Notes: a model not told the origin generated them from the sequence alone. 64,000 nucleotides of DNA from Candidatus Kapaibacterium sp. (GCA_963665665.1 OY762428.1:384001-448000), one strand, 5' to 3'; numbered from the stretch's first letter, positions 42,955 to 64,000 are shown. Numbers and translations: made by a program.

Positions 42955-43406
42955 AATAATCCCTGAAATATTATTTGAGAATTGTGATAGCAAAAAAATT
43001 CAGATTTCAAAAATATTTGAATAAAAATACTCTTGCATTTATCATTATACAACAAATTAAAATATTCTATCTGCTATATTCTATTTAGCAATAAACAATT
43101 CCAAGCTCAACTTAGGAAATAATTTGAATATTTCATAATAATTTATATAGAATAAAATAATAATTCAATTGAATATTTATCAAACCATGTTAGCTAAGTG
43201 TATCGTAAATTTTATTTTTTTCCTATAGAAGATGATTTGTTTTTATTCTTAAAATATCAATTTGAAGTTCTTGCCTTTTTCAACAAATTTTTGTATCTCC
43301 GATTTAAGAAATTTTATTTACTGAATACATCTAATTTGCCTTGCTTTTAAGCAAATAAATATATAAATTTTAAAGATTTTTGGATTATCAATATCCGGGG
43401 ATAAAA

Positions 43407-49814: not shown

Positions 49815-50065
49815 ACGCTAACCAATTAAAATCACAGATTATCCTCTTCCACATATTTCACAATATTTGAAATATTTCAGAGGTTTGAAATATTGATTTT
49901 CAATAAAAATTCTTCTGATTTCAAGAATCAATTAAATATCTAATAATTTATTATTCAATTTATTCAATAATTAAGATATTAGCAAATTAATTTACATGTT
50001 TTTTTCAAAATCTGAATAATTTAATTATGATTTTGATCAGAAAATATGGTGGCTATTTTCTAAAA

Positions 50066-50108
50066 TAAAAAAGGCAGGAAGTATTTATCGTTATAACTTC
50101 TTGCCTTT
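50066..50108 (-). terminator. Terminator of tRNA-Leu
   Basis: Minus strand aaggcaagaagt...acttcctgcc-tttttt. Confidence 0.75.
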
Positions 50109-50125
50109 ATTAGTGTTAATCACTG

Positions 50126-50209
50126 TGCCCGGAAGAGGATTCGAACCTCCACGCCCGTACGGACACTACACCCTGAATGTAGCGCGTCTACCAATTCCGC
50201 CATCCGGGC
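50126..50209 (-). tRNA. tRNA-Leu(CAG), CCA end not encoded
   Basis: GCCCGGA acceptor stem; D-arm GGCGGAATTGGTAGACGC; anticodon arm CTACA-TTCAGGG-TGTAG; long variable arm; GGTTCGAATCC; discriminator A followed by CAG. Confidence 0.97.
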
Positions 50210-50364
50210 AGACTCTGTTGTCAAAAGAACGAATACAAATATAAGAATAATTTTTTAAAAACAACAATGAAATTTATTTTTATTTTGTCTGTTTTATTGT
50301 TGAATTTAATAATTTAATGTTTTATATTTGAATAATAAGAGTCCACAACTTAAGGGTTTGAAAA

Positions 50365-53300
50365 ATGAATAAGTTAAATTATATATATACAACATTAGCC
50401 ATCATTGTTTTCTTATCAGCCGGAATTGCGCATAGCCAGCATTATTATATCAACGAATACCACAATGCATCTTCCGCATCAGAGGAATGGACGGAAATTA
50501 TTGTTGTTGATAATGATGCCTCGCTTGCAAATGTTGTTCTCAGGGATAATTCCACATCTTCTCAGTGGCCCGAGAACTGGCAGGGCGGTGTCAAATTCCT
50601 TGATATTCCTTTTTGGAGAAACATTCCTGTTGGAACTATAATTGTAATAAATCACAGGGGAAACGATGCTGTTGACATTAACCCACTTGACGGTTATATT
50701 GAAATTGATGCTGAAAACGAGAATTTCTTTGAAAAGGTTTGCTATGCCTGCACTCCCACTAACTGGCAAATAGGAGCGCTGAATATTGCAGGCAGCATGG
50801 ATATCGTTCAACTTTGCCACACTGATGGTGAAAATATCCACGCCCTGGCACATTCACCAAATTATGGTGGAGATATTTTGGATATTTACGGAAAGAAAAT
50901 CTGCTATCCCGAAAGTATTAGCTCGGGAGAAAGTGTTCAGATACTGCCGGGAGATAAATGGTATGCTTATGAAGGAGCTTACGATTCAGGAAAGTCCAAA
51001 ACCTGGGCCGGACAGCCAAGCAAGGGAAAAGCAAACAGCAACACGGCTTACCCGAATTCAAACTTTGAATACCTTCTGGGTAAAAGAAAACCTACATGGA
51101 TGGCTGCAAACGCAGACTGTGAAATAAACACGAATTCAGTAACAATCAACTGGTCGCAGTATCCTATGATATCTCCGTCCAACTTTATAAATTTCTTACT
51201 TGTCAGAATTCCGGAATCTGTATATTCAGGAGCAGATCATCCGCAACAGGGGAAATACTATGCCCCGGGCGATAAGATTGGCAGTGGAGAAGTTGTTTAT
51301 AATGGCAACAGACGACTATTCAAAGATCAGTACAGAATCGAAGCTAATGAGAAATGCTATTACCGCCTTTACGTATATCGTTACGGCCGTGACGATATCC
51401 TTGATAATAATACGATCGAAAGTGATATTGCCCGCGGCCCTGCTTATGATATGGATAATTTTGTTGAAGTTATGCTGGAAAAATATGAGCAGACAAGTGT
51501 TGAAATATTAACAGAAAACGGCATGAATGAATTCTGTGAGGACGACACTATGATACTTTGGGCAGAGGTTGAAGGAGCCGATCCGCCATTTGATTTTATG
51601 TGGTCTCATCACGGAGTTGTTGTGGCTGATTATAATGAGGAGGTTGATCAACTTCAAATTTCTTCCGGCGGACGATGGGAAGTTGAAGTTAAAAGCAAAT
51701 CGGGCATTATTGGTTACGATACAATATGGATAGACATGGTGGAAAAAGCCGAACCAATAATTATTCTTCCAGACGGTACTCCCGTTATAAACGACACAAC
51801 AGTTTATATTTGTGAGAACTCCGAACTGCAGGTATATGTAACAGAAGGTACTGAATGGCGCTGGGAAAAGGATTTTAAGTTAATCTCCGGGGCATCTGAC
51901 AGCCGTCTGACAATAAAAGAAGAAGGCAAATATGTGAATATTGCAAGCCTTTTCGAAAAATGCGAAGGTACATCCCCTGTTTTGGAAATTAAAAATTACT
52001 ATATTGATATCACACCTGACCCGGCTGATCTGGAATATCACCTTAGCGTAGGTGAAAATGTGCTCGATCAAAACCTGAAACTTACTAATAACAGCTACAT
52101 ACAATACGAATTTTCTGAAGATGATGTCGATCTTCCTGAATATTATGAAATTATTTCTCCTGATTTTCCGATAATTCTTGAACCTATGGGTGAAGTTAAT
52201 CTGACAATCAGGTTCAGGCCGGAAGTTCCCGGAAATTTTGGTGGTAATATAGTTTTCGAAACCGATTGTGATTTGGAATATTCATATTATATTTATGGAA
52301 CAAGTCCAAGCCAGATAGTATTTGCAGAATTCAGCGAACTTGATTTCGGCCTTATAGCGGATTGTCTTTCAGCTGATACAACACTCACATCAAGCGTATA
52401 TAATTCCGGGGTTGAAGACGTTACCTTGTACGAACCAATAGTAACGGAGCCATTTTATATTGCAAACCCATACTCATATCCTCATAATTTCGTTTCGGGT
52501 GCTACATGGCCTGTAAAATTTGCAATTAATGCCCCCGCTTCCGGTGAACATGAAGGAACAGCACTTTTCCCCATTAAAATCGGCGAAAGTATTGATACAT
52601 TGAAAATTTTACTGGAATGTGAAATCCGTTCTCCGGAGTTTAGTATTCTTAACAATAACATTTCCCTGACTATTCCGGAATGTGAAAATTCTGTTGACGA
52701 AACAATACAAGTTCGAAATCAGGGATTTTTTGACCTGACGATTGAAAATAATCCTGCACCTGAAATAGAAATCCAGGGATTACCCCTGACAATAAAAGCG
52801 GGTGAATCTAAAGCTATGACTTTTACATACAGCCTGCCGGACGGTTTTACAAATGGCAGCCTGTACAATTATCATATTGAAGCAGAACCATGCCAGGCCA
52901 TTTCCGATATTGACATCACTGTTCAGAAAAAAGGATATAATTACCAATTTTCAGATAATTCTGTAATTGATCTGGATACGCTTGTTTATTGTAGTGGAGA
53001 GATAAATATTGATGATGCTATTGAACTTCTGATTGAAGGCGTATCAGATAATTCAGCTACAATCGTTAACTTTGAGTATTCAACAGATATTAACAACCTT
53101 TTCGAAGCTGATTTCACTGAGGGAAATATTCTCGAATCCGGTACTCATCCACTGAATCTGAAAGTTACCGGATATCGTGAAGGTTACTTTGAAGGAGAGA
53201 TAACGCTAAGTATTGAACCTTGCTCAGAAAGAAAATCATTTTCAATCAAAGGATATATTTATCAACCTGAGATCAGTATTGATAATACATCCTTAAATTT

Positions 53301-54312
53301 TGGAACAGGAAAAATACCTTTTTCAAAAACAGACAGTATAAAAATTGTCAATGATGGTATTATTGATATTACAATTGATAAAATTGTAGGAATTGCAACT
53401 CCGTTTTCCGTTGATTATTCATTATCGTCTCCTATGCCCAGCACACTGAAGAGCGGCGAAACATTCTATTTGGCAATTACATATTCAGCCAATATTGCAG
53501 GAACTGATAATCTTGATATCAACCTGATTACAGAACCATGCAGTAATTCTCATATTCTTAGCCTGTCAGGGACCGGAAGCAATATACTAAACGAAGTTCT
53601 TGATATTGCTATCGACAACAAAAGAACCGCAAAACCCGGGGAAAAGATCGATTTAAGAATTGTTGTAAATGAAAACTCTCAAACTGACGGAGTTCTGACT
53701 TTTAAAAAGTTCGATTTTTCTATTGCTTACGATCCCGAAGTATATTATCCACAAAATATTCTTGCCGGAGAAAAAATTCCTGTCAATGATATTGTAAACG
53801 TATCAATGGATATCTTCACACCCGGTGATGTACGCGGAAGTATTGAATTAAATAATCACCAGGATGTGGAATATGGTGAATTCGCCATTATTGAAGGGGT
53901 AACAATGCTAAACTCTAAGCTGAGAACTGAACTATATCTCGGACGTTTGCAATTTGACTCTCCCGATAATATCAGCATTGATAATATTACTGAAAGCCTG
54001 ATAATACTGGACGACGGATGTGCTCTTGACAGAAGGTTAGTCGGCAATGCTCCCCCCCCTGCAATAAGGGTAATCAAAGATGATGACAACAGCGATATTA
54101 CTCTGAAATACAATATTATGAGCGAGGATTACTCAAGCCTTGATATTTATGATTCTTATGGCAATAAAATCAGATCAGTTGAAGCCGGATATATAAAACC
54201 AGGAGAATACGAAAAGAATCAGGATATAATCAATCTGGCTTCGGGCCAATATTTTGTTGTTCTTAACAATGGGAATATAATGGTAACAGCGAGGTTGATA
54301 GTATTGAAATAG
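50365..54312 (+). CDS. Large T9SS-secreted protein (lamin-tail-like N-terminus, Ig/ASH-like repeats, cohesin-like domain, CTD)
   Basis: Signal peptide; YINEY...EEWTEI start; repeated 'L.FG...S.YNSG' units; C-terminal IYDSYGN...LASGQYFV...RLIVLK. Confidence 0.82.
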   Translation: MNKLNYIYTTLAIIVFLSAGIAHSQHYYINEYHNASSASEEWTEIIVVDNDASLANVVLRDNSTSSQWPENWQGGVKFLDIPFWRNIPVGTIIVINHRGNDAVDINPLDGYIEIDAENENFFEKVCYACTPTNWQIGALNIAGSMDIVQLCHTDGENIHALAHSPNYGGDILDIYGKKICYPESISSGESVQILPGDKWYAYEGAYDSGKSKTWAGQPSKGKANSNTAYPNSNFEYLLGKRKPTWMAANADCEINTNSVTINWSQYPMISPSNFINFLLVRIPESVYSGADHPQQGKYYAPGDKIGSGEVVYNGNRRLFKDQYRIEANEKCYYRLYVYRYGRDDILDNNTIESDIARGPAYDMDNFVEVMLEKYEQTSVEILTENGMNEFCEDDTMILWAEVEGADPPFDFMWSHHGVVVADYNEEVDQLQISSGGRWEVEVKSKSGIIGYDTIWIDMVEKAEPIIILPDGTPVINDTTVYICENSELQVYVTEGTEWRWEKDFKLISGASDSRLTIKEEGKYVNIASLFEKCEGTSPVLEIKNYYIDITPDPADLEYHLSVGENVLDQNLKLTNNSYIQYEFSEDDVDLPEYYEIISPDFPIILEPMGEVNLTIRFRPEVPGNFGGNIVFETDCDLEYSYYIYGTSPSQIVFAEFSELDFGLIADCLSADTTLTSSVYNSGVEDVTLYEPIVTEPFYIANPYSYPHNFVSGATWPVKFAINAPASGEHEGTALFPIKIGESIDTLKILLECEIRSPEFSILNNNISLTIPECENSVDETIQVRNQGFFDLTIENNPAPEIEIQGLPLTIKAGESKAMTFTYSLPDGFTNGSLYNYHIEAEPCQAISDIDITVQKKGYNYQFSDNSVIDLDTLVYCSGEINIDDAIELLIEGVSDNSATIVNFEYSTDINNLFEADFTEGNILESGTHPLNLKVTGYREGYFEGEITLSIEPCSERKSFSIKGYIYQPEISIDNTSLNFGTGKIPFSKTDSIKIVNDGIIDITIDKIVGIATPFSVDYSLSSPMPSTLKSGETFYLAITYSANIAGTDNLDINLITEPCSNSHILSLSGTGSNILNEVLDIAIDNKRTAKPGEKIDLRIVVNENSQTDGVLTFKKFDFSIAYDPEVYYPQNILAGEKIPVNDIVNVSMDIFTPGDVRGSIELNNHQDVEYGEFAIIEGVTMLNSKLRTELYLGRLQFDSPDNISIDNITESLIILDDGCALDRRLVGNAPPPAIRVIKDDDNSDITLKYNIMSEDYSSLDIYDSYGNKIRSVEAGYIKPGEYEKNQDIINLASGQYFVVLNNGNIMVTARLIVLK

Positions 54313-54329
54313 TTCCGGTTAACTAATTC

Positions 54330-54515
54330 TTACGGAATTAAAATTTCAAGATATTTGCAAATATGTTTAATTAAATCGTTATCAATTTCATTATGACGAG
54401 GGACAGGTTGTTTCCTGCCGTTTTTAATATTAACGAATATATCATGATTAGATCCATGTCTTAATAGTTGGCAGCCATGCTTATTCAAATATTTTATAAA
54501 CTGTTTTCGCTTCAT
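54330..54515 (-). CDS. hicA: HicA family toxin (mRNA interferase)
   Basis: MKRKQFIKYL..HG...RHGSNHDIF...VPRH with the catalytic His. Confidence 0.9.
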   Translation of the reverse strand: MKRKQFIKYLNKHGCQLLRHGSNHDIFVNIKNGRKQPVPRHNEIDNDLIKHICKYLEILIP

Positions 54516-54730
54516 ATAACAAGTTCTTTTACCTTATAATCATCAGGAACATCATCCATTTTCATTAAGATAAAAGCTTCTCTTATATTTTCTTCAAGCT
54601 CTTCTACCGAATTTCCCTGTGTCATAATATCAGGATATTCCAATAACTTACCGAGCCAAAATTTTTCGCTTTTCCAATAGATCAAAGTCATTTTGGAATT
54701 AATTTGCTTCTTTTTATCATTATCTATCAT
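54512..54730 (-). CDS. hicB: Short HicB family antitoxin
   Basis: YPDIMTQGNSVEELEENIREA motif; 4-nt ATGA overlap with hicA. Confidence 0.88.
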   Translation of the reverse strand: MIDNDKKKQINSKMTLIYWKSEKFWLGKLLEYPDIMTQGNSVEELEENIREAFILMKMDDVPDDYKVKELVI

Positions 54731-54801
54731 TAGAAACCCTTTTATAATTTATTTTATGGAAGCATAATACTGATAATTATTTTCCCATAAAAATAAAGTT
54801 T

Positions 54802-55584
54802 CTAATAATTTTTCAATAACCTTTCAAGTTCTTTCAGATAAATCGGGTTATTGTTTATACCATTATGCCTTTGTCCGTAAAGTGTTATTAATGTATCACC
54901 TGCTTTGAATAACTTTTCAAGTTTCTTCGAAGAACCATAATATATCGTTTCATCAATATCGCCATGAAAAATAATCACAGGGCATTTTGTTTTGCGGATA
55001 TATTTGTTAGTCTCCAATTTGTAACTTACAAACGAAGAAGGAATATACGAAACCAATTCATTAGCAAGATCCGGGATGTTATAGTAAGGAGCTTTAAGTA
55101 TCAGAAGTTTAGGATTGTTTTCTGAAGCAAGAAAAGCTGCTAAACCCGTACCGATAGAATACCCGATAACAACAATATCCTTTTCCCTGAATTTTGTTTT
55201 CATCGTATCATAAGCAATCTGCATATCGCTAAGTAATTGTTCTTCCGAGCTGATTTTTCCTCCGCTTTTTCCATAACCACGGTAATCGATAATGAAGAAA
55301 TCATAATTATTATCAAGATAAGTACCGGCAATTTCTCCCCATGTGTTCAAAGCTCCGGCATTGCCATGGAGATAGAACACAAGTCCTTCGGAAGTATCTG
55401 CCCTAAACCACAATGCGTTCAAATTTATACTATCACCGACGGGAATATTTAATTCCGTAAAATTTTCTGTGAAACCGAAATGATAATCATCAGGAAGCCT
55501 GGACGGATGAAACAGATATTCCTCCTGATTGCAAGAACTTAACAACAGTGAAATATAAAGAACGAAAGACAATCTTAACAACAT
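54802..55584 (-). CDS. Alpha/beta hydrolase (ABHD13-like), predicted lipoprotein
   Basis: LSSC lipobox; HGNAG, DYRGYGKS, GYSIG and FHGDID motifs. Confidence 0.88.
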   Translation of the reverse strand: MLLRLSFVLYISLLLSSCNQEEYLFHPSRLPDDYHFGFTENFTELNIPVGDSINLNALWFRADTSEGLVFYLHGNAGALNTWGEIAGTYLDNNYDFFIIDYRGYGKSGGKISSEEQLLSDMQIAYDTMKTKFREKDIVVIGYSIGTGLAAFLASENNPKLLILKAPYYNIPDLANELVSYIPSSFVSYKLETNKYIRKTKCPVIIFHGDIDETIYYGSSKKLEKLFKAGDTLITLYGQRHNGINNNPIYLKELERLLKNY

Positions 55585-55601
55585 AATATTACCTATAAAT
55601 T

Positions 55602-56063
55602 TTACCCGTCAAGTTCACTCAGGAAATCCCGAAGAATTATTGCAGCAGCAATTTTATCGGCGCTGCCTTTAGTCCTGCGCTGTTTTTTCTTCTTCCCGAT
55701 GCTGATCATAGTTTCCATGGCGCGACAGGATGAAAAGGATTCATCATAAGGATATACTTCCAATCCGGTTACTTCTTCAACTTTAGCTATAAATTCTTTT
55801 ATTTCCTCTATAACATCAGTTGTCTGGCCGTCATGGCGGTAAGGAATCCCGATAACAATAGCGCCAAGCCTTTCCTTTATTACTTCCTCAGATATTTCAT
55901 CCATAAGGGTTTCGCTGTCGGCATCAAATATTCTTCTGGGTGATGTAGTTATATGGAACTCGTCGGTAACGGCAAATCCAATTCTTTTTAAACCATAATC
56001 AAAGGCACCAATTCGTTTACCCTTGAGTTCTTTCCTGATTTTATCATTAATATTATTGATCAT
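55602..56063 (-). CDS. ruvX: YqgF/RuvX family nuclease (pre-16S rRNA processing)
   Basis: FDYGLKRIGFA, IGIP, DESFSS and DKIAAAIIL motifs. Confidence 0.93.
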   Translation of the reverse strand: MINNINDKIRKELKGKRIGAFDYGLKRIGFAVTDEFHITTSPRRIFDADSETLMDEISEEVIKERLGAIVIGIPYRHDGQTTDVIEEIKEFIAKVEEVTGLEVYPYDESFSSCRAMETMISIGKKKKQRRTKGSADKIAAAIILRDFLSELDG

Positions 56064-58333
56064 TTGTCTGTCTCTATGCTTTTTTTATTCTTCCTTCCCA
56101 AAACCGGAATTATAAAGATAATTTCAGTACCTTTACCTATTCTTGATTTTATTTCAATTCTCCCGCCGTGGGTTTCAATAACCTGTTGCATTATCATCGT
56201 TCCAATTCCAAAACCGCCATGCTTTTTTGATGTTGTGAAATATGGCTTAAGCATTTTGGCCTGTGTTTCTTCATCCATTCCTTTGCCGCTATCGGCTATT
56301 GTAAAATAGAAAAAACGATTATCCTTTCTGCATGATATTGTAATATTTCCATTCTGCTCCGGTATAGCTCTAATACCGTTTTCAACGGCATTCCTCATAG
56401 CACGTGTAAATTTTGCCCTGTCGCAATGGAATGTGAAACTTTCAAGTTTCAGATCGAAGTTTATTCCAGGAAAAACAATATCATCAAATTCAAATCGGAC
56501 AGTATTGCATAGTTCTACTGAATTAACAGGTTCAATATTTAATTTATCACTTCTTCCTACTGTTACAATATCCCTGACCCGCTGAATCAGAATATTTGTC
56601 TGATGAATTATTTTATGTCTTCGTTTAAGATTATCATTATTATCAGTACAGCTAAGCTGGTCAGCATTCAATTTAATTGTTGCAAGATTGGTTTGCATGT
56701 CGTGAGCAAGCTGGGCCCAGTTGGAAAGCCTTTTCCTTTCAAGCTGCTCGGTAATATCAATACCTGTAAATAGTATCCCCCTGAAATTCCCCGTGATATT
56801 CCTTACAGGAACAATTGTACAAAGAAGTTCCTTCATATCATCGTTAATTTTCAGGCTTACTTTTCTTTTAATAATATCCTTCTCTGCAAGCGCTTCTTCC
56901 ATTATTTGTTTCATCGGCAACAGATTATTCTGGACAAAATAATAATCAAGCATTTTTTTCAGGGGAATCGCTCCTGTAATTTCCAGCAGTTCCCTTGCGC
57001 TGTTATTTGCATAGTTCAGCTTGCCCATTTTGTCTGTTATTAAAAGAATACCTGATGTGGGTAGTTCCAGGATCTCTTTGAAAAATCTTTTTTGATGTCT
57101 GTACAGCTGAATAAATATTATCAGAAATACAATTAAAATACCCGGGAATAGATAAATACCCCTGTTTCGGACAAACCTGTTAAATAACCATGCGGGATGT
57201 TCTTTTTTCTCGAATATCAATGTTCCGGAATTTGATGCTGCTATCAAATTGCCATTCAGGAACGAAAGCTCCGGTTTGTCCCGGAATGATTCTGAAAAAG
57301 GGAAATAATCAGCCGATATAATTTCCTCATCGGCAATACCCGCAATCCCATTGCGAAAAACAATATAAATCATTTCCCCAACGGGTTTTATTAACATTGG
57401 CTCAATAAACATTTCCGGCATTTCAATTGGCAAAGCCTCTTTGTTATTTTTCAGCCCGTCAATCCCTACAGAATTTAAATAGTATCTGCTCTCGGAATAA
57501 GTAAGATATGATATTAATATTTTTTTATTTATATCGGTAATCACTATCCTTTCAGCCGGGCTCTCAATCCAGCCTGAAAACTCTATTCCATTTTCATTTA
57601 TAACATTTAGCAATGACTGGCCAATGCCGGAAGAAGAAAGCAGATAAATTTTGTCTCCGAAAATTTTTATAACTGCATTATCATATACAGCTGTTCGTGC
57701 AATTAATTTCTCTTTTCCGTCAATAACAGCATATACTACGTTGCTCAATCCCTTCCGAACAACATAAACAGCGCTGATACGGCTGATCTTATCATTTCCG
57801 TAATCAAAATCAATTACTCCTGAATTTACATAGCTATTATTAATTCTCCCGCCGTCGATCCTGGTTCTGAACAATTCTCCTTCAACAAGAACATAAAACA
57901 AATCTTCATCTACCGTCCTGAACCATTGCGATCGCAAGCGTGAAAAAGATTGTTCCAGGGACTGCAATTCAGTTATTGCTTTCAGTTCCAGGGCAGTATC
58001 CAGTATAGCAGTGTAGCAGCGCCCTTTGTCCTGCCATAATAGCAGGATATCATCGCCCCGGGGAATTGCCGAATTAATAAAAACCTCCCCGAGTGATGAA
58101 GCCTCAGCATTCTTCCTGATAATGCCTTCCCAGGTATATAGCACTTCAGAATCTGCCCAGTTCGGCTTTATCATATAAGTACGGATATAACTATCTATTT
58201 CCGACGTATATATTTTACCTCCCTCGTATGACTCGATAAGGCTGAAGGAAATTGGATAGGTATCATCAGCCCGTAAAATATTAACAGATAATATCATCCA
58301 TATAATAAGCGTTATTTTAGCAGTTTTTTTCAG
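56060..58333 (-). CDS. Sensor histidine kinase with large extracytoplasmic domain, TM, PAS and HATPase
   Basis: WAQLAHDMQTNL, NAVENG, DSGKG, PYFTT and GFGIG boxes. Start extended from ATG 58297 to CTG 58333 (see findings). Confidence 0.85.
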   Translation of the reverse strand: MKKTAKITLIIWMILSVNILRADDTYPISFSLIESYEGGKIYTSEIDSYIRTYMIKPNWADSEVLYTWEGIIRKNAEASSLGEVFINSAIPRGDDILLLWQDKGRCYTAILDTALELKAITELQSLEQSFSRLRSQWFRTVDEDLFYVLVEGELFRTRIDGGRINNSYVNSGVIDFDYGNDKISRISAVYVVRKGLSNVVYAVIDGKEKLIARTAVYDNAVIKIFGDKIYLLSSSGIGQSLLNVINENGIEFSGWIESPAERIVITDINKKILISYLTYSESRYYLNSVGIDGLKNNKEALPIEMPEMFIEPMLIKPVGEMIYIVFRNGIAGIADEEIISADYFPFSESFRDKPELSFLNGNLIAASNSGTLIFEKKEHPAWLFNRFVRNRGIYLFPGILIVFLIIFIQLYRHQKRFFKEILELPTSGILLITDKMGKLNYANNSARELLEITGAIPLKKMLDYYFVQNNLLPMKQIMEEALAEKDIIKRKVSLKINDDMKELLCTIVPVRNITGNFRGILFTGIDITEQLERKRLSNWAQLAHDMQTNLATIKLNADQLSCTDNNDNLKRRHKIIHQTNILIQRVRDIVTVGRSDKLNIEPVNSVELCNTVRFEFDDIVFPGINFDLKLESFTFHCDRAKFTRAMRNAVENGIRAIPEQNGNITISCRKDNRFFYFTIADSGKGMDEETQAKMLKPYFTTSKKHGGFGIGTMIMQQVIETHGGRIEIKSRIGKGTEIIFIIPVLGRKNKKSIETDK

Positions 58334-58805
58334 GTATAATCTCCTTTAATTGGCAGACTGAATAAACGGCTACCCCTTCTCCCCTGCCTTCAGGCCCCAT
58401 TTGCTCATTTGTTGTTGCTTTGATATTTACCCTTTTTACTACTAATCCGCATGCATTAGCAATACTTTCGCGTATTTGCTGTTTATAGGTTGATATTTTT
58501 GGCTTTTCAAGAACAATAGTGGCATCTATATTTACAAGTTCTAAGCCTTCCTCTTCTATCAACTCAAGGCATTTTTTAAATAAAAGCATACTGTCAGCAT
58601 TTTTATAAACCGGATCAGTATCAGGGAAGTGTTCACCAATATCATTCATTCCGGCTGCACCAAGAACGGCATCTGAGATAGCATGAAGAAGGACATCTCC
58701 GTCGCTGTGTGCTACGGTTCCAAAGTCAGAAACAATTTTCACTCCGCCCAATATCAGGCTTTCTCCTTTTGCAAGCTTATGTACGTCGTATCCAAAACCA
58801 ACCAT
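58317..58805 (-). CDS. ispF: 2-C-methyl-D-erythritol 2,4-cyclodiphosphate synthase
   Basis: GFGYDVH, HSDGDVLLHA, DIGEHFPD and NIKATTNE motifs. Confidence 0.97.
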   Translation of the reverse strand: MVGFGYDVHKLAKGESLILGGVKIVSDFGTVAHSDGDVLLHAISDAVLGAAGMNDIGEHFPDTDPVYKNADSMLLFKKCLELIEEEGLELVNIDATIVLEKPKISTYKQQIRESIANACGLVVKRVNIKATTNEQMGPEGRGEGVAVYSVCQLKEIIPEKNC

Positions 58806-58989
58806 TTAACAGGAATCCAGGAAAATTAGAAAAACTTTCGTCCAAAATATTAAAAAAATTACTATAATCCTTGGCTTAAACAGATTTTTTTATTTAATTA
58901 TTGAAATCTTTATTGATTTACATTTTTTCGTTCTGTAAAAGTCATTATTTTTGTCTGAAATATTTTGTCATTAATTTGGATACTCCGAA

Positions 58990-59529
58990 ATGAAATTATT
59001 AGCATCAGTTGTTTTATTTTTTGCAGTTTTGCTAATGTCATGTTCTGACGATACTGGCAGCGGACCTGAAAATGTTACTACAGATTACAATCTGAAAGTT
59101 AATGAATTTGTAGCAGCAGGCTCGGAGCAATTAAATGAATATGCTGAAAATGCAGACTGGTTTGAAATTTATAATGCCTCTGATAAAATTGCCGAATTGA
59201 AAAAAGGAAGCTGGTTTTTCTCCGATGATACTACTCAACTGGATAAATGGGTTCTTCCTATCGACACAACAATTGAAGCCGGTGGATTTCTGATAATCTG
59301 GTGTGATGATAATAATAAATGTGAAACCGAAATCCATACTTCTTTTAAGCTGGGTTCAGCAGGTGAAACTATTTGCATATCCTGCATGAAGGACGGTGAA
59401 ATTCAGATTATTGATTCGAAAGAATATTTCAATGCTGAAGGCGCTATTAGTTATGGAAGGTTCCCGGATGGCAGTGAAATATGGGAGGAATTTGAAACAC
59501 CGACCCCCGGAACAACGAACGTAAAATAA
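58990..59529 (+). CDS. Lamin-tail-domain lipoprotein
   Basis: LMSC lipobox; VNEFVA, DWFEIYN, GGFLIIWCD, SYGRFPDG and PTPG motifs. Confidence 0.85.
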   Translation: MKLLASVVLFFAVLLMSCSDDTGSGPENVTTDYNLKVNEFVAAGSEQLNEYAENADWFEIYNASDKIAELKKGSWFFSDDTTQLDKWVLPIDTTIEAGGFLIIWCDDNNKCETEIHTSFKLGSAGETICISCMKDGEIQIIDSKEYFNAEGAISYGRFPDGSEIWEEFETPTPGTTNVK

Positions 59530-59548
59530 CAATAAAATTTTGTATGCG

Positions 59549-59575
59549 AAACCGGGCAAATGTCCGGTTTTTTTT
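59549..59575 (+). terminator. Terminator between convergent genes
   Basis: aaaccgggca-aa-tgtccggtttttttt. Confidence 0.8.
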
Positions 59576-60530
59576 ATATACATATTTTGATAATAGTATA
59601 ATCATCGTCAATGCAATTATCAGCAGATTTATCTATCAGGAAATTATACAATTTCTTCAATTCAGATGATTCATCATCAATATTATCCTTCAGAAATTCA
59701 ATCATTTCACTAATTTCAAACATCTCACCTGATTTCTTTTCAATTTCGTATGCTCCGTCGGTGTAAATATACAGGGTCATTCCGGGATCGAGGACTTTTG
59801 ATTCGGCAACATAGCCCCAATTTGGCATTGGCCCTATCATTGCATTCTGAGATTTCAACTGAACTGATTCATGTCCGTTCAGAATTATGATGGGAGGATG
59901 GCCTGCTCCGCAATAAGAAAGTTTTCTTTTACCTTTATTGTAAACACAATACCACATCGTAAAAAACATATTATTATGATCGGACATTTGAAAAGCGTTA
60001 TTAAGCGAAAAAACAACATCTTCAGGGTCAGTAAAATCCACTCCCGGAAGGTTTTGAAATTTAATTGTATTTATTACTGATACTGAATATAAGGCCGGAC
60101 CAACACCGTGACCGCAAACATCAATAATATAGATTGCAAGGTTGTCATCATCAATCTCATGATAACCGTAAATATCACCCCCAAGTTTATCCGAAGGAAT
60201 AAATTCACCGCAAATTTTCAATTCATCGTCAAGTTTTTCAGGAAGGAGCGAGCGTATATACTCTGCTGCATGAGTAAGCTGCTCATCAATAATATCATAC
60301 TTTTCTTTCAGTTCCGCACGGGTATCAAAAAGGTCTTTCTGGGTTTTATCACTTATTACAAGTAATTTTTTCATCTGTTTGAACTGTCGCTTATATTCCC
60401 GCGCAAGAACTTCAAACTCTGAAAACATCGGATTATCTGAATTAGCCCAATCGTTGATTACGGAATCAATCCTGGATATAATTCTGTTCTCTTTTCTAAA
60501 ACTATTTTTATTATCTGAACTTTTTTCCAT
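59574..60530 (-). CDS. SpoIIE/PP2C (RsbU-like) phosphatase with N-terminal coiled coil
   Basis: GGDIY, DVCGHG, AGHPP, YTDG and DDYT metal-binding motifs intact; N-terminal YKRQFKQMKKLLVISDKTQ helix. Confidence 0.9.
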   Translation of the reverse strand: MEKSSDNKNSFRKENRIISRIDSVINDWANSDNPMFSEFEVLAREYKRQFKQMKKLLVISDKTQKDLFDTRAELKEKYDIIDEQLTHAAEYIRSLLPEKLDDELKICGEFIPSDKLGGDIYGYHEIDDDNLAIYIIDVCGHGVGPALYSVSVINTIKFQNLPGVDFTDPEDVVFSLNNAFQMSDHNNMFFTMWYCVYNKGKRKLSYCGAGHPPIIILNGHESVQLKSQNAMIGPMPNWGYVAESKVLDPGMTLYIYTDGAYEIEKKSGEMFEISEMIEFLKDNIDDESSELKKLYNFLIDKSADNCIDDDYTIIKICI

Positions 60531-60548
60531 TATTTTTCTATATCCGGA

Positions 60549-60926
60549 TTAATTCATTTCAATTATTTCAAAAGGTATATCCATATCTTCGGCAAATTCC
60601 TCACCGCTTTCGAATATACTTTCGTTACCGGATTTGTAATACCATTTTATTTGAATTTCACGCCCATTTAAAAAGCTGTCGTTCAAAATATCCATAATAT
60701 CCAAAAGTGCTTTTGATGAGGATGTATTGAAATAAACCAACTTGAAATTAAAAACAACTTTTTTCTCAGAATTTTTTAAATAATTTTCAACCCAATCAAT
60801 CACAGGATCGAAGAATTCCAAAGCATTTTCCGGATACGATGAACCTGCTAACAATAACTCGCCGGTCTCAAAGTTGAACTCAACCTCAGGCGAGGCTTTG
60901 TCTGCTTTAACAGTTAAATTTTTCAT
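60549..60926 (-). CDS. siaC: SiaC family (DUF1987) phosphoprotein
   Basis: SPEV, GSSYPEN, YFNTSS (Thr is residue 68), IKWYY and GEEF motifs. Confidence 0.9.
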   Translation of the reverse strand: MKNLTVKADKASPEVEFNFETGELLLAGSSYPENALEFFDPVIDWVENYLKNSEKKVVFNFKLVYFNTSSSKALLDIMDILNDSFLNGREIQIKWYYKSGNESIFESGEEFAEDMDIPFEIIEMN

Positions 60927-60927
60927 C

Positions 60928-61491
60928 TCATTCTCCCTTTTTTATTTTTACAGTTAATTCCATAAATGTTGTTTCGGAATCAATGTCGTCAAAAGTATAT
61001 TCAATTCCATCAGTAGATTTACGTGCAATATCGATTAGCCCGAGGCCTGCTCCCTTTGAGTCATCCTCGCGGGGCATTCGGCGCTGTGTTTTATACATTT
61101 TTTTCAATTCCAGTTCATCTGATTTGTTTATCAGCTCAAGCCTGTCTGTAATTTCCTTTATTCTGGTTTTATCAATTTTATTTCCAGCAAGAATTGAGTA
61201 ATATTCCGGCTCCTCCATGAATAAAATTATCCCGACACCAAATTCGCGTCCTTCAATTTGTTCACGTTCGGCAGAATAGTTCATAATATTCTGCGCCATT
61301 TCCACAAAAACAGAAAAACAACGCCTTATTTTATCCGGAAAATCACTCGCGTGGTTATTTATCAGGTCTCCCATTTCAATTAATATTTCCTGGGATAGCG
61401 CACCCTTAAAAAGTAGCAGGATATTAAATTTATTTATTATCCTGTTATAGAATCCGAAAAGTTCGCCCCGTTTCATATCTTTTCCTGTCAT
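60928..61491 (-). CDS. siaB: SiaB family (DUF6272) protein kinase
   Basis: FKGALSQE, FSVFVEMAQNIMNYS, GNKI, LELIN and KGAGLGLIDIARKS motifs. Confidence 0.9.
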   Translation of the reverse strand: MTGKDMKRGELFGFYNRIINKFNILLLFKGALSQEILIEMGDLINNHASDFPDKIRRCFSVFVEMAQNIMNYSAEREQIEGREFGVGIILFMEEPEYYSILAGNKIDKTRIKEITDRLELINKSDELELKKMYKTQRRMPREDDSKGAGLGLIDIARKSTDGIEYTFDDIDSETTFMELTVKIKKGE

Positions 61492-61646
61492 TTTTGCAAA
61501 TCAATTTTTTGGGATTTTAATTAAATCAAAACCCTATATATATTTACAACAATAATGATGCCAACGCTCAATATTAAAAAAAATATCTTATTAATCGAAG
61601 TCTGCATCAAAAACTATTTCCATTTTTAACCTCTGCCTGTTTACAT

Positions 61647-63668
61647 TTATTCAGCAAGAGGACATGTAAACTTAAACGACGTTCCCTGCCCTGGTTGGCT
61701 TTCAACCCATATTTTACCGCCATTCTTCTCAACAAATTCCTTGCAAAGAATTAATCCCAGTCCGGTGCCTTTCTCGTTTTCAGTCCCGGGTTTGGAATAT
61801 TGCACATCAATCCTGAATAATTTGTCAATATCTTCCGCCGCTATTCCCACGCCGGTATCATTTATTTCAATAATTATTTTATTATTTTTTACTGAGGAAT
61901 TTAAAAATATCTTACCCCCCGAAGGAGTAAATTTAATTGCGTTTGATACAAGATTTCGAATAACTGTTGTAATCATATTTGAATCAATATTGGCAAATAA
62001 TTCACTTTCAAAATCGGTAATCAGTTCAATATTTTTCGAAGCTGCCGGGCCGGTCATTAAATTTTTATTATTTTCCAACAGATAGGCAAGGTTCGTTCTA
62101 TCAGGATTGTAATCTAACCTTCCGGTTTGTGATCGCGCCCAGTTCAATAGATTTTCAAGAAGTTCGTAGAGCTGCTTGGCAGATTGATTCATCAATGTCA
62201 GGAAATCAATTTTATCTTCTTTGGAAAGATCATCAAACTCTTTTATCAGCAGTCCGGATATTTGACGAAATGAACCAAGGGGATTTTTCAGGTCGTGGGC
62301 AATGATAGAAAAGAATTTATCCTTCGTTGCATTCAACTCTTTTAACTGCCCTTCTGATCTTGATATTTCCTGATTTTTCTCAGCCAGATCTTTATTCAAT
62401 GACTCAAGTTCAAGGAGTGCATCATTGATAATTTTATTTTTTGATTCAAGAACTACAGAATGGCGTTTTTTATTCCTATAAAAAATCATGATGACAACAA
62501 GAACAACAAAAACAAGAACCAACATAGCAGCAATAAAGTATGTAATTTTCTTTTGTAATGAATTCTCCTTTTTAAGATATTCAATTTCCTTTTCCTTAAG
62601 ATCGTTTTCACGTTGAGCTTCAAGATTAGCAATCTTAGTTTTGGTTTCACTATTGAACACAGAGTCCCTCAGGTCAACCTGCTTTTCAAAATATTTAAGT
62701 GAGTTTTCGAAATCACCTTTTGCTTTATATGCTTTGGAAAGGATTAATACATCCTGGTGATTGTTATACATCTCTCCAACTTTTTCATAATACTCAAGAG
62801 CTTGCAGAAGATATTTTATAGATTTATCGAGTAGTTGGGTTTTACTGAGTTTAAGACTTTGGCTTTTACCTTTCTGAAGATTAGTAATTGAGTCAAGGGT
62901 TTGTTTGTAATAAATATTACCGAGCCTTCCGTATGTAATTCCAATACCTCTGACATCATCATCTTTTTTATAAAAATCAATGGATTTTTGAAAATATTCT
63001 TCAGCTTTAATATAATTCATTTTTTCACTGAAAATTTCACCTATATTATGCATCGAATTCGCAATACCCTGATAATCTCTAAGTTCCTCTTTCTTTTTCA
63101 TCGATCTTTGAAACATAACCAAAGCACTGTCGTATTCCTTTTCCTGCCAATAAATTGCTCCGATATTGTTTATTGCATTAGCTATCCCTCTTACATCATT
63201 GATTTTTTCTTTTCGTGCAAGAGATTTTCTGAAATAGAGCAATGCCTTATCGTAATTTTGCAATTTCCAGTATATTGTACCAATATTGTTCAAAGCACTT
63301 GAAATACCTTTCTCATCGCCAATTTCCTCTTTTATTTTTAGTGATTTAATAAAATAATCCAGGGTTCTGTCAAAATCCGATTTAGTATAATAAGACAAAC
63401 CAATATTTAGTAGAGCTTTTGCTTCCCCGGGTTTCCAGTTCAAATCCCTCGCAAGTTTTAAAGCCTTATTTCCATATACAATACCCTTACCCGGATCCGT
63501 AGAATAATAGTGATAAGTTAATTGAACAAGTAGTGTAACTTTATTGGTATCTTCTTTCATTTTTGGCAATTCCAATAGCAGGGAATCAATCAATTCCTGG
63601 CCATGTTTTCTTGCCATTGTAGGAGTAAAAAGAACAAATATCAGTAAAAGAGTGAAAAACCTTCTCAT
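61647..63668 (-). CDS. TPR-repeat sensor histidine kinase
   Basis: Signal peptide; TPR units (ALNNIG, AINNIG, SMHNIG); TM helix; AHDLKNP, RNLVSNAIK and GTGLGL boxes. Confidence 0.92.
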   Translation of the reverse strand: MRRFFTLLLIFVLFTPTMARKHGQELIDSLLLELPKMKEDTNKVTLLVQLTYHYYSTDPGKGIVYGNKALKLARDLNWKPGEAKALLNIGLSYYTKSDFDRTLDYFIKSLKIKEEIGDEKGISSALNNIGTIYWKLQNYDKALLYFRKSLARKEKINDVRGIANAINNIGAIYWQEKEYDSALVMFQRSMKKKEELRDYQGIANSMHNIGEIFSEKMNYIKAEEYFQKSIDFYKKDDDVRGIGITYGRLGNIYYKQTLDSITNLQKGKSQSLKLSKTQLLDKSIKYLLQALEYYEKVGEMYNNHQDVLILSKAYKAKGDFENSLKYFEKQVDLRDSVFNSETKTKIANLEAQRENDLKEKEIEYLKKENSLQKKITYFIAAMLVLVFVVLVVIMIFYRNKKRHSVVLESKNKIINDALLELESLNKDLAEKNQEISRSEGQLKELNATKDKFFSIIAHDLKNPLGSFRQISGLLIKEFDDLSKEDKIDFLTLMNQSAKQLYELLENLLNWARSQTGRLDYNPDRTNLAYLLENNKNLMTGPAASKNIELITDFESELFANIDSNMITTVIRNLVSNAIKFTPSGGKIFLNSSVKNNKIIIEINDTGVGIAAEDIDKLFRIDVQYSKPGTENEKGTGLGLILCKEFVEKNGGKIWVESQPGQGTSFKFTCPLAE

Positions 63669-63675
63669 TTAGCCC

Positions 63676-64000
63676 TCATATTTTTAAACCCATTACAGTT
63701 ATATCATCCCTGAACGGGATACCATTGGAGAATTTATTCAATTCCTCTGATAATATAATTCTTTTTTCATTAAAATCTATATCTCTTTCGAGTAATTCTT
63801 TTAATTTTTCTTTACCAAAGAATTCATCTTTTTCATTATTCTGATCTAATATCCCGTCGGAGAACATGAAAAGCCTTGTTTCGCTTTTTAATTCCAACGT
63901 TTGCTGTGTAAAAATTCTTTCTTTCCTTACCCTACCTCCAATACCAAATTTGTCACCCTTTATCTCTTCAATTTTCCCGTTCGTTGAATACCAAAGCGGA
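63676..64000 (-). CDS. C-terminal part of a SpoIIE/PP2C phosphatase (SiaA-like), runs off the right edge
   Basis: Frame is open to the window edge: PLWYSTNGKIEEIKGDKFGIGG...FTQQTLEL...MFSDGILDQ...FGKEKL...RDDITVMGLKI. Confidence 0.85.
   Translation of the reverse strand, partial: PLWYSTNGKIEEIKGDKFGIGGRVRKERIFTQQTLELKSETRLFMFSDGILDQNNEKDEFFGKEKLKELLERDIDFNEKRIILSEELNKFSNGIPFRDDITVMGLKI

Follow-up and report, generated by a model that had tools for sequence, protein, structure and literature searches.

A SiaABC-type partner-switching locus in Candidatus Kapaibacterium with a PP2C phosphatase as candidate output enzyme

To our knowledge, all work on the Sia system so far concerns Pseudomonas aeruginosa and treats it as a pathway to c-di-GMP alone. 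A literature search found no paper on a Sia output other than c-di-GMP, and a search with family terms was also empty. In the stretch of Candidatus Kapaibacterium DNA analysed here (64,000 nucleotides, hereafter the window), the gene that follows siaB and siaC encodes a PP2C phosphatase, which raises the question of what SiaC controls at this locus. On balance, we favour a partner switch of the SiaABC type in which this PP2C, and not the diguanylate cyclase SiaD, serves as output enzyme and is probably switched by the docking of SiaC.

Genes of the locus and their identities

Five co-oriented minus-strand ORFs occupy 59574..64000, namely a partial PP2C, a TPR histidine kinase, siaB, siaC and an intact PP2C:

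63676..>64000, minus strand: SiaA-like PP2C, 3' end encoding the last 107 aa (SpoIIE/PP2C, E 6.1e-11)
61647..63668, minus strand: sensor histidine kinase, 673 aa, with signal peptide, TPR repeats, membrane helix, HisKA and HATPase_c
61492..61646, no strand assigned: AT-rich spacer between the kinase gene and siaB, 155 nt, read from the sequence
60928..61491, minus strand: siaB, SiaB-family protein kinase, 187 aa (DUF6272, E 1.7e-38)
60549..60926, minus strand: siaC, SiaC-family phosphoprotein, 125 aa (Pfam SiaC PF09345, E 1.9e-43)
59574..60530, minus strand: downstream PP2C, whole gene, 318 aa, SpoIIE/PP2C, intact
59548..59571, plus strand: terminator-like hairpin, a 10-pair stem then a T run, between the PP2C gene and a convergent LTD-domain gene

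The TPR histidine kinase gene separates the input phosphatase gene from siaB. Its spacer to siaB may contain a promoter; a sigma-70 scan was not above chance (21 sites found against 20.1 expected), and no terminator-like site was found on the minus strand of the spacer. The hairpin at the other end likely marks the end of the operon.

The 107-aa fragment of the upstream PP2C matches positions 551-656 of the 658 in the NCBIfam SiaA model (E 5.7e-11). The full-length protein, P0342 (826 aa, on a contig of 5,458,198 bases, with 100% identity over the window fragment), consists of a signal peptide, TPR sensor, membrane helix, coiled coil and PP2C. On the SiaA model it aligns through residues 535-825 with positions 359-656 and scores 184.3 bits (E 4e-54), below the equivalog cut-off of 700 bits (NF038263), and the N-terminal sensor is of TPR type. 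In a tree it clusters with PP2Cs whose genes precede siaB in Leptospiraceae, Opitutales and Bacteroidota, and a long branch (SH-aLRT 99-100) splits this SiaA-position group from the clade of the downstream PP2C. Judged by position and clade, the upstream PP2C can be classed as a SiaA-type input enzyme, though not as a SiaA equivalog.

The kinase carries the HisKA and HATPase_c pair of a two-component kinase (33.2 bits against a cut-off of 26.9, E 5.3e-08, and 91.6 against 26.4, E 5.7e-26, respectively), together with TPR_12 (E 1.4e-31), the sequence FFSIIAHDLKNPL as phospho-acceptor His box, and its strongest hydrophobic 19-mer beginning at residue 378. Over 364 aa, its N-terminal half shares 37% identity with the sensor half of the upstream PP2C. 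The two proteins have the same type of sensor, and the kinase probably reads the same cue as the input phosphatase, via a parallel two-component branch. No cognate response regulator was found in the window, and a profile search found no SiaC-receiver module in the kinase, which thus gives no sign of being a SiaC target.

SiaB matches the NCBIfam SiaB_fam_kinase model NF038262 over residues 17-183 (159.4 bits, cut-off 85) and PF19788 (131.8 bits, cut-off 26.6), misses the stricter equivalog NF038264 (109.9 against 225), and aligns with chain 6kko_A of P. aeruginosa SiaB at E 8.3e-19. SiaC scores 147.4 bits against PF09345 (DUF1987; cut-off 24.5), falls narrowly below the NCBIfam equivalog NF038265 (134.2 against 150), and forms a gap-free alignment with P. 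aeruginosa SiaC (6kko_C, E 1.8e-29) from residue 2 to 121, with T68 on T68. The Thr68 codon lies at 60723-60725, and Y65, F66, N67, T68 and S70 are invariant across 41 homologues. At the 14 contact positions listed in the accessible part of PMC8457831, SiaC is identical at eight (Y31, Y65, N67, T68, S69, D79, E110, D114) and differs non-conservatively at five. The nearest SiaC match (53%) is from Kapaibacterium, and orphan siaB-siaC pairs are common in Bacteroidota.

ORF calling with Pfam and NCBIfam searches bears out every gene call of the original prediction for these five co-oriented genes, including the partial SiaA-like PP2C, which rests on SpoIIE and NCBIfam SiaA matches and on the tree. 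Its placing of SiaC Thr68 in YFNTSS agrees with the minus-strand translation YFNTSSS at 60714-60734, and the ORF coordinates return its siaB-siaC and siaC-PP2C gaps of 1 and 18 nt, the PP2C-kinase and kinase-siaB gaps being 7 and 155 nt. The further claim that there is no diguanylate cyclase stands for the 64-kb window of a genome of ~5.46 Mb and is limited to it: the scan of 44 ORFs of at least 100 aa turned up no GGDEF domain (64 are listed in the window; the other 20 are shorter and lie within, or overlap, longer genes on the opposite strand). A SiaD, or another target that carries the module described below, may be encoded elsewhere in the genome.

The N-terminal stalk of the downstream phosphatase

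The downstream PP2C scores 127.8 bits against PF07228 (cut-off 25), and in the PDB it is most similar to the SiaA PP2C domain (6k4e, E 4.4e-09) and P. aeruginosa RssB (3eq2, E 1.5e-08). D119, D137, D258, D309 and D310, which we take to be metal ligands, are invariant in 13 PP2C sequences that share its N-terminal module. The parts of the protein are:

59583..60152, minus strand: PP2C (SpoIIE-type) catalytic domain, residues 127-316 (PF07228, E 6.2e-37)
60243..60530, minus strand: SiaC-receiver stalk module, residues 1-96 (~95 residues), from a SiaD model match and module profiles
60339..60356, minus strand: core motif I59-S60-D61-K62-T63-Q64 (ISDKTQ), from translation, the predicted docking site of SiaC Thr68

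No Pfam model covers the stalk, of which residues 19-79 match positions 3-63 of the NCBIfam SiaD model (NF038266, E 1.2e-4). The protein has the I-S-D-x-x-Q stalk motif of SiaD and no GGDEF domain. In module profiles A2 and A4, ISDKTQ aligns with I81-S82-D83-R84-Y85-Q86 (ISDRYQ) of P. aeruginosa SiaD, whose S82 and Q86 bind SiaC T68 in the crystal structure according to the available text of PMC8457831. Compared with the 13 SiaD contact residues named in that text, the stalk has six identical residues (K55, I59, S60, D61, Q64, D69), two conservative changes and five non-conservative ones. When profile A2 was searched against 177,635 PDB sequences, SiaD (7e6g_A) came first at E 0.0014, with coiled-coil proteins scoring close behind (next, a myosin coiled-coil chimera at 0.0028); profile A4 also put 7e6g_A first, at E 0.014, with the next match at 0.26, ~20-fold apart. 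SiaD did not appear when residues 1-126 were searched against the PDB as a single sequence, the sole match being a mitochondrial ribosomal protein. In terms of E-value (family model and both profiles alike), the sequence link between stalk and SiaD is weak.

The stalk is common to a range of other proteins: cyclase, GGDEF, kinase and small proteins whose genes follow siaC have N-termini that align with it. In a phmmer search that used only the window PP2C as query, residues 2-87 match GAF-cyclases and a 160-aa protein, all from genes immediately behind siaC (loci L006, L008, L014). The module was defined from alignment A2 as N-terminal, with conserved F11, E14 and Y46 and a [VI]-[SG]-D-x-x-[QE] core, in a gene directly after siaC. 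The downstream PP2C has all of these features, scores 100.1 bits on the first module profile (itself one of the seeds), and is the only module match in the six-frame translation of the window. Among 3643 ORFs, this profile found 15 more module ORFs (20 matches at E ≤ 3e-6, of which 4 were its own seeds), and no further match reached E ≤ 0.01. At the A2 threshold, 14 of 80 SiaC loci from other species contain module ORFs, 19 in total; all 19 share the strand of siaC and either start -4 to 101 nt past it or stand second or third in line behind it. Loci L003, L014, L018, L032 and L079 have two or more module-bearing genes for one siaC.

A search of 1.84 billion representative proteins returned 1058 module proteins (about a thousand clusters). 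Among the 53 top matches of at least 230 aa are 24 histidine-kinase, 9 GGDEF, 6 class III cyclase, 3 Ser/Thr kinase and 3 PP2C proteins, and one representative, P0265, in which SiaC is fused to the module. The core motif is the most conserved stretch across 150 module proteins (D61 in 148, S/G at position 60 in 146, Q/E at 64 in 143, V/I at 59 in 131). SiaD is the best NCBIfam match for seven of the nine GGDEF module proteins scanned, and several of these matches span both stalk and catalytic domain. The module is present in 12 of 120 PP2C homologues from metagenome protein sets and absent from REC- and PAS-fused relatives, and is therefore not a generic PP2C linker.

A complex of two stalks (residues 1-96) and two SiaC chains was modelled with a score of 0.80, against 0.32 for the best of three controls; between runs, at least 84% of the contacts are the same, and the partner pLDDT is at least 90. 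Stalk residues 55-66 lie in the interface, and SiaC Thr68 sits between the two stalk helices, where it contacts residues 56, 59 and 60 in one stalk and residue 57 in its partner. The interface is thus compatible with docking. Among solved complexes, 116 of 157 reach the mark passed here, as do 2 of 215 mismatched pairs, and since a like complex (7E6G) had already been solved, passing it shows likeness to SiaC-SiaD rather than binding of this pair.

A proposed switch and its competitors

In the switch that we favour, the SiaA-like membrane PP2C with its periplasmic TPR sensor would remove the phosphate from SiaC Thr68, and SiaB would restore it. Within the cell, unphosphorylated SiaC would dock its Thr68 loop onto ISDKTQ of the downstream PP2C stalk, bridging two parallel stalk helices and thereby stabilising the dimer, while phosphorylation of Thr68 would block docking. 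As the stalk runs into the linker helix that controls the catalytic domain in related REC-PP2C proteins, docking should switch the phosphatase, most likely on, by activation rather than inhibition. Its target may be a Ser/Thr phosphoprotein or SiaC-P itself. The original prediction that SiaC talks to the downstream PP2C and not to a GGDEF enzyme draws support from the SiaD-type stalk motif, the position of the module after siaC, the complex model and the SiaA-type upstream PP2C. Conservation of siaC-PP2C adjacency in relatives, which it had put forward as a check, was not found, a PP2C following siaC in 0 of 80 species loci; what speaks for the link instead is the module itself and its presence on PP2Cs of metagenome protein sets (12 of the 120 homologues, 3 of the 53 top matches). 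Contigs of equal size (P0003/P0122, 12557 bases; P0018/P0130, 2264 bases) give no more than a hint of such adjacency among module PP2Cs.

The same genes could also form a feedback loop, in which the downstream PP2C mainly dephosphorylates SiaC-P and is activated by the free SiaC that results, giving more free SiaC and a self-reinforcing switch whose true output lies elsewhere. The SiaA catalytic domain being its best PDB match, SiaC-P could also be its substrate, SiaA being the enzyme that dephosphorylates SiaC in the accessible text of PMC7278518. Its gene is close behind siaC, and the several loci with more than one module gene per siaC make further targets elsewhere in this genome plausible. 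We nonetheless hold such a loop to be rather unlikely as the main role: the catalytic domain falls outside the clade of all seven SiaA-position enzymes in the tree, the SiaA model gives it 37 bits against 184 for the upstream PP2C, and the other large module proteins are signal-generating enzymes (kinases, cyclases), which fits an output role.

In Bacillus subtilis, RsbU and RsbP both act on RsbV. The two PP2C genes of this one locus, both products being weakly to moderately similar to SiaA, might in the same way serve two inputs and dephosphorylate SiaC-P on different cues, with the N-terminal helix as a sensor or dimerisation element that does not bind SiaC. This would be very surprising for a SiaD-type stalk with a SiaC-binding motif, which is also found on non-phosphatase enzymes encoded after siaC and on which the complex model places SiaC (as a likeness to SiaC-SiaD only). 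It is hardly credible that the N-terminal likeness is that of a generic coiled coil and that a PP2C of an unrelated pathway lies beside siaBC by chance, given that all 19 module ORFs come after siaC and none elsewhere among the 3643, that the motif is sharply conserved and non-heptad, that a SiaC-module fusion exists, and that the second profile sets SiaD well apart from its next match; the marginal SiaD E-values, with the myosin chimera so near in A2, and the lone ribosomal match in the single-sequence search speak on the other side.

Relation to known switches and wider meaning

The favoured switch resembles P. aeruginosa SiaABCD (6KKO, 6K4F, 7E6G) in its SiaB and SiaC families, the conserved Thr68, the SiaA-like membrane PP2C upstream, the SiaD-type stalk motif in the gene after siaC (ISDKTQ against ISDRYQ) and a modelled interface that uses the same residues on both sides. 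It differs in having a PP2C rather than a GGDEF output, one stalk motif where SiaD has two, a TPR sensor in place of the N-terminal part proper to SiaA, and a TPR histidine kinase gene inserted between the input phosphatase gene and siaB. The host also differs, being low in GC and having a T9SS sorting-domain protein, and the nearest SiaC is not from a pseudomonad.

Comparable arrangements are known for other phosphatases and cyclases. In the accessible text of Baral et al. (eLife 2025, PMC12143880), B. subtilis RsbT binds the N-terminal helical region of the PP2C RsbU, rigidifies its dimeric linker and activates it, and the same N-terminal regulatory domain, part of an 'exchangeable toolkit', is also described on histidine kinases and GGDEF cyclases; SiaA and SiaC have 0 occurrences in that text. 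Both systems place a small partner on the N-terminal helices of a PP2C; however, RsbT is a kinase and its receiver a four-helix bundle, whereas here the partner is the phosphorylatable SiaC (DUF1987) and the receiver a SiaD-type stalk. The catalytic domain and linker are most closely related to REC-PP2C 'fused response regulator/phosphatase' proteins such as RssB (3EQ2/3F7A), with 40-47% identity over ~75% of the query; RssB 3eq2 aligns from query residue 60, and the layout of linker plus domain is alike. In place of their receiver domain the protein here has a SiaC-receiver stalk, and we propose control by a partner rather than by aspartate phosphorylation. The STAS-type switches HsbA-HsbD and BgrV-BgrR control diguanylate cyclases (PMC8457831, accessible part). 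There too a phosphorylatable small antagonist directly binds and switches a signalling enzyme, but the antagonist is a STAS protein rather than DUF1987/SiaC, and the output is another. That DUF1987 proteins modulate adjacent proteins was no more than a suggestion in a 2021 structure paper.

With a SiaD-type docking helix on the downstream phosphatase, this helix looks like a plug common to many kinds of signalling enzyme. More tentatively, the SiaD stalk could be a portable receiver and SiaB/SiaC a general phosphorylation-gated clamp, pluggable onto any dimeric signalling enzyme and working much like a two-component receiver domain, with a two-tier phosphatase cascade at this locus. If so, its hosts would include histidine kinases, diguanylate and class III nucleotide cyclases, Hanks-type kinases, PP2C phosphatases and small membrane anchors. 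In the cascade, the sensor PP2C would free SiaC and so turn the second PP2C on, and ultrasensitive or bistable behaviour would be possible if the second PP2C also acted on SiaC-P. With the present evidence, the suggestion made in 2021 becomes a testable rule, that a ~95-residue stalk with a six-residue core marks SiaC targets, across at least five signalling enzyme classes. The module could annotate many 'hypothetical' N-termini and predict the targets of orphan siaB-siaC pairs. It would provide a second independent example of exchangeable partner-binding helices among phosphatases, kinases and cyclases, and the window PP2C would be a compact model for how a coiled-coil clamp switches a PPM phosphatase.

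Layout of the Sia locus and its two phosphatases

The Sia locus consists of five genes that are separated, in transcription order, by gaps of 7, 155, 1 and 18 nt.

Genes and hairpin of the Sia locus, with their family matches (window positions)
63676..>64000, minus: partial PP2C, last 107 aa (upstream PP2C; SpoIIE E 6.1e-11; SiaA model 551-656 of 658, E 5.7e-11)
61647..63668, minus: TPR / HisKA / HATPase_c kinase, 673 aa (TPR_12 1.4e-31; HATPase_c 5.7e-26)
60928..61491, minus: SiaB, 187 aa (NF038262 159.4 bits, cut-off 85)
60549..60926, minus: SiaC, 125 aa (PF09345 E 1.9e-43)
59574..60530, minus: PP2C, 318 aa (downstream PP2C; SpoIIE domain at 127-316, E 6.2e-37)
59548-59571: terminator-like hairpin, 3' of the downstream PP2C and ahead of a convergent gene

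The original prediction described five co-oriented genes for a partial SiaA-like PP2C, a TPR kinase, SiaB, SiaC and an intact PP2C, with siaB, siaC and the PP2C gene only 1 and 18 nt apart. The ORFs with their domain and family matches bear out the former, and the ORF coordinates the latter. SiaC gave an ungapped alignment with its P. aeruginosa counterpart (6kko_C, E 1.8e-29), placing Thr68 within YFNTSSS, in agreement with the predicted YFNTSS, while SiaB matched the P. aeruginosa SiaB chain (6kko_A, E 8.3e-19). Of the 64 ORFs of at least 100 aa in the window, 44 were scanned and none of these contained a GGDEF domain, which agrees with the description of a locus free of a diguanylate cyclase. 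Given these gene identities, gaps, Thr68 and the GGDEF-free scan, the observation holds as it was written. A sigma-70 promoter scan returned 21 sites against 20.1 expected, no more than chance. GC content was approximately 0.32-0.42 across positions 50000-64000.

The full upstream PP2C was recovered as an 826-aa protein (P0342), which is 100% identical over the fragment and shares its contig with the other proteins of the window. Besides a signal peptide and TPR repeats, it has a cytoplasmic part and, near residue 498, a membrane helix; its residues 535-825 match SiaA model positions 359-656 with 184 bits (E 4e-54). The downstream PP2C was considered as the SiaA orthologue and rejected, as it scored 37 bits on this model and the upstream PP2C is both far closer and a member of the SiaA-position group. 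This group was seen in a catalytic-domain tree built by a quick method from 84 rows (the first 50 homologues, every third of the remaining 70, and 10 added sequences). There, the upstream PP2C and its paralogue P0344 clustered with PP2Cs whose genes precede siaB in loci of Leptospiraceae, Opitutales and Bacteroidota, and a long, well-supported branch parted them from the downstream PP2C and its REC- and PAS-fused relatives. Judged by the SiaA-model scores and this grouping, the upstream PP2C is the predicted SiaA-type input and the downstream PP2C is something else. The sensor halves of the upstream PP2C and the neighbouring histidine kinase share 37% identity over 364 residues, a match that takes in the membrane helix and the juxtamembrane coiled coil; on this similarity the two look like paralogous sensors with different transmitters. 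The genome encodes at least one further TPR-PP2C paralogue, the aforementioned P0344 (746 aa, 61% identical over the fragment).

Several other features of the window were recorded. At 1.3 kb downstream from the Sia locus, and on its strand, is the gene for an orphan sensor kinase of 745 aa (56060-58297, minus); the kinase carries PAS and HATPase_c domains, and its large N-terminal region had no Pfam match. Convergent with the downstream PP2C is a putative lipoprotein of 179 aa (58990-59529) whose weak lamin-tail-domain match, at 33.7 bits, narrowly misses the cut-off of 34.3. A 61-aa ORF of the HicA toxin family (E 8e-11) overlaps the end of a 72-aa ORF by 4 nt. The latter had no Pfam match; the two (54330-54730, minus) are probably a HicAB-type toxin-antitoxin pair. 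Two large surface-type proteins are also encoded, one of 1315 aa with Ig-like domains (50365-54312) and one of 1234 aa (39289-42993) whose T9SS C-terminal sorting domain points towards the FCB group. At gathering threshold, Rfam models matched the window once, at a tRNA-Leu with anticodon CAG (50125-50209, minus).

A module encoded after siaC and its spread

Residues 19-79 of the downstream PP2C matched the N-terminal part of the NCBIfam SiaD model (E 1.2e-4), which gave the first hint that its N-terminal stalk of approximately 95 residues may be a SiaC receiver. SiaC loci were collected with each species represented by a single genome. A relative was encoded in 578 of the 601 matched stretches; the 80 best, all from genomes other than the window's own, were kept with up to 7 kb fetched on each side of siaC. 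The closest SiaC among them, from a Kapaibacterium, shared 53% identity. When the downstream PP2C was used as a lone query, its residues 2-87 matched two Leptospiraceae proteins, both with GAF and class III cyclase domains, and one small Bacteroidota protein, all three encoded directly after siaC. Alignment revealed one module common to the PP2C subfamily, the Leptospiraceae cyclases, a small membrane protein and, from a Chloracidobacterium genome, a GGDEF protein resembling SiaD. Among 3643 ORFs, the first module profile brought in 15 more with the module and had no other match at E <=0.01. Altogether, 19 module ORFs were found in 14 of the 80 loci, all on the siaC strand, and these either begin -4 to 101 nt after siaC or are the second or third gene in line. 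In a six-frame translation of the window, the downstream PP2C was the sole match.

The adjacency of siaC and a PP2C gene, for which the original prediction looked to relatives, did not recur, as a PP2C followed siaC in none of the 80 species loci. Within the stretch of up to 7 kb on each side, a module gene was absent from 66 of the 80 loci and a PP2C from 69; seven of the 11 loci with a PP2C anywhere in this stretch also had a module gene. A convergent ABC-transporter gene of approximately 1025 aa was next in 35 of the 80. In Bacteroidota, most siaB-siaC pairs stand alone (e.g., L009:6464-6826 and L010:7001-7363), and the phosphatase and targets of such pairs must be located elsewhere. Four loci (L004, L018, L032 and L079, at about 6400-7400 in each) carry a tandem siaB-siaC-siaB-siaC duplication, which in the last three is preceded by a PP2C of approximately 910 aa and followed by two small module proteins (150-174 aa). 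Unusual genes precede siaB in a Leptospiraceae genome (1776 aa, Ser/Thr kinase, AAA_16, GAF and PP2C; L008:935-6265) and a Cytophagales genome (1455 aa, LRR / NB-ARC / TIR; L015:1041-5408).

The module is present in 12 of the 120 closest PP2C homologues listed (the best 120 of 140 at E <=1e-10), while REC-, PAS- and other-fused relatives and short Roseibium-type enzymes among these 120 are without it. An iterated search drifted into the REC-PP2C linker. The idea that the N-terminus merely resembles an ordinary PP2C linker was nevertheless rejected, since a module profile built almost wholly from non-PP2C sequences matches no more than those 12 of the 120 homologues. In the catalytic-domain tree, the module-bearing PP2Cs did not resolve into a single clade, and support values were low.

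Against 1.84 billion representative proteins, the module profile gave 1058 matches at E <=1e-3 and 261 at E <=1e-10. The module is N-terminal in 149 of the best 150 representatives, and no Pfam model covers it. The commonest module proteins are small ones (among P0191-P0340; e.g., the 160-aa product of L014:1143-1625): 97 of the best 150 have fewer than 230 aa (median 173 aa), and in 71 of the 97 a strongly hydrophobic, membrane-helix-like segment stands right behind the module. Membrane tethers and SiaC sinks are possible roles for such proteins. The other 53, of at least 230 aa, were scanned against Pfam.

Domains accompanying the module in the 53 longer proteins
Histidine kinase after the module: 24, 7 of them hybrids
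GGDEF after the module: 9
Class III cyclase after the module: 6
Hanks-type kinase after the module: 3
PP2C after the module: 3
GAF only after the module: 1
MFS after the module: 1
SiaC then the module (fusion): 1
No domain at E <=1e-8 after the module: 5

SiaD was the best NCBIfam match in 7 of the 9 GGDEF proteins scanned, and in several of them the match extends across stalk and catalytic domain alike (138-195 bits; cut-off 290). In the 315-aa protein P0265 of the representative set, a SiaC domain (11-121) is fused to the module (134-223), which is Rosetta-stone-type support for a link between the two. Judged by these distributions, the module is specific and portable.

Resemblance of the module to SiaD

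In P. aeruginosa, residues S82 and Q86 of the diguanylate cyclase SiaD hold SiaC Thr68 between two stalk helices that run in parallel, and binding is prevented once Thr68 is phosphorylated, according to the available text of the structure paper (PMC8457831). Two module profiles were searched against PDB sequences. A2, made from 20 module sequences with one PP2C among them, ranked SiaD (7e6g_A) first of 177,635 sequences (E 0.0014), with a coiled-coil chimera close behind. A4, made mostly from small module proteins, again placed SiaD first (E 0.014; next match 0.26). Both align the module core, I59-S60-D61-K62-T63-Q64 in the downstream PP2C, with SiaD I81-S82-D83-R84-Y85-Q86, and A2 also aligns with a second SiaD motif, ISDGFQ around S50/Q54. 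Among the contact residues named in the available text of PMC8457831, 6 of the 13 in SiaD are identical and 2 conservative in the downstream PP2C, and 8 of the 14 in SiaC are identical in the window SiaC. The core is also the most conserved stretch of the 150 representative module proteins (D in 148, S/G in 146, Q/E in 143 and V/I in 131). A single-sequence PDB search with PP2C residues 1-126 missed SiaD, and its top match, to a mitochondrial ribosomal protein (E about 1e-3), we took as chance helical similarity. An ESM Atlas search with residues 1-100 gave a best score of 0.89, to unnamed clusters and under the tool's 0.9 line. With such modest E-values, the proposed link to SiaD rests on several weak lines agreeing, not on one strong one.

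A complex of two stalks (residues 1-96, A2) and two SiaC chains (SiaC alignment A1) was modelled, and scored 0.80 against 0.32 for the best of three controls. The mark used is one that 116 of 157 solved complexes attain, as do 2 of 215 mismatched pairs. Contact agreement between runs was at least 84% and partner pLDDT at least 90. The modelled interface comprises stalk residues 10-13, 48, 51-53, 55-66 and 68, and SiaC residues 31, 36-37, 40, 43, 65, 67-69, 71-72, 75-76, 79, 103, 106-107, 110-111 and 113-114, thereby taking in, from the contacts of the crystal structure, 12 of the 13 positions equivalent to SiaD and 12 of the 14 in SiaC. One stalk copy contacts Thr68 through residues 56, 59 and 60, the other through residue 57. 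As the complex of SiaC with SiaD has already been solved, the model's pass may reflect memory. As modelled, the pair is compatible with the SiaC-SiaD interface; this does not show binding.

A proposed switch with a phosphatase as output

We propose that, on perceiving a cue through its periplasmic TPR sensor, the SiaA-like upstream PP2C would become active and dephosphorylate SiaC in opposition to SiaB, and that free SiaC would then clamp the dimeric stalk of the downstream PP2C at ISDKTQ. The downstream PP2C has no hydrophobic segment, in keeping with a soluble enzyme, and its catalytic aspartates are conserved. Its stalk runs on into a helix aligned with the linker of P. aeruginosa RssB (3eq2, aligned from query residue 60). 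The catalytic domains of RsbU and RssB-type phosphatases are reported to be activated when their dimeric linker is rigid (PMC12143880, available text). By analogy with SiaD and RsbU, activation of the downstream PP2C by SiaC is therefore the likeliest sign of regulation.

Two candidate substrates of the downstream PP2C fit the data. Were it a second phosphoprotein, the locus would form a cascade; were it phosphorylated SiaC, it would form a positive feedback loop. We put the cascade somewhat ahead.

Among the papers listed in the literature searched, SiaB, SiaC and SiaD appeared only for P. aeruginosa or as names of unrelated genes, DUF1987 appeared in a single paper, and family terms such as DUF6272 and 'SiaC family' were absent; the EMBO J 2020 Sia paper falls outside that literature. 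In the available text of the 2021 structure paper, the proposal goes only as far as a modulation of adjacent proteins by those of the DUF1987 family (PMC8457831); the available text of the 2025 RsbU paper proposes exchangeable partner-binding domains with no mention of Sia (PMC12143880). Beyond the PP2C locus, the wider point is the predicted existence of a portable SiaC-receiver stalk.
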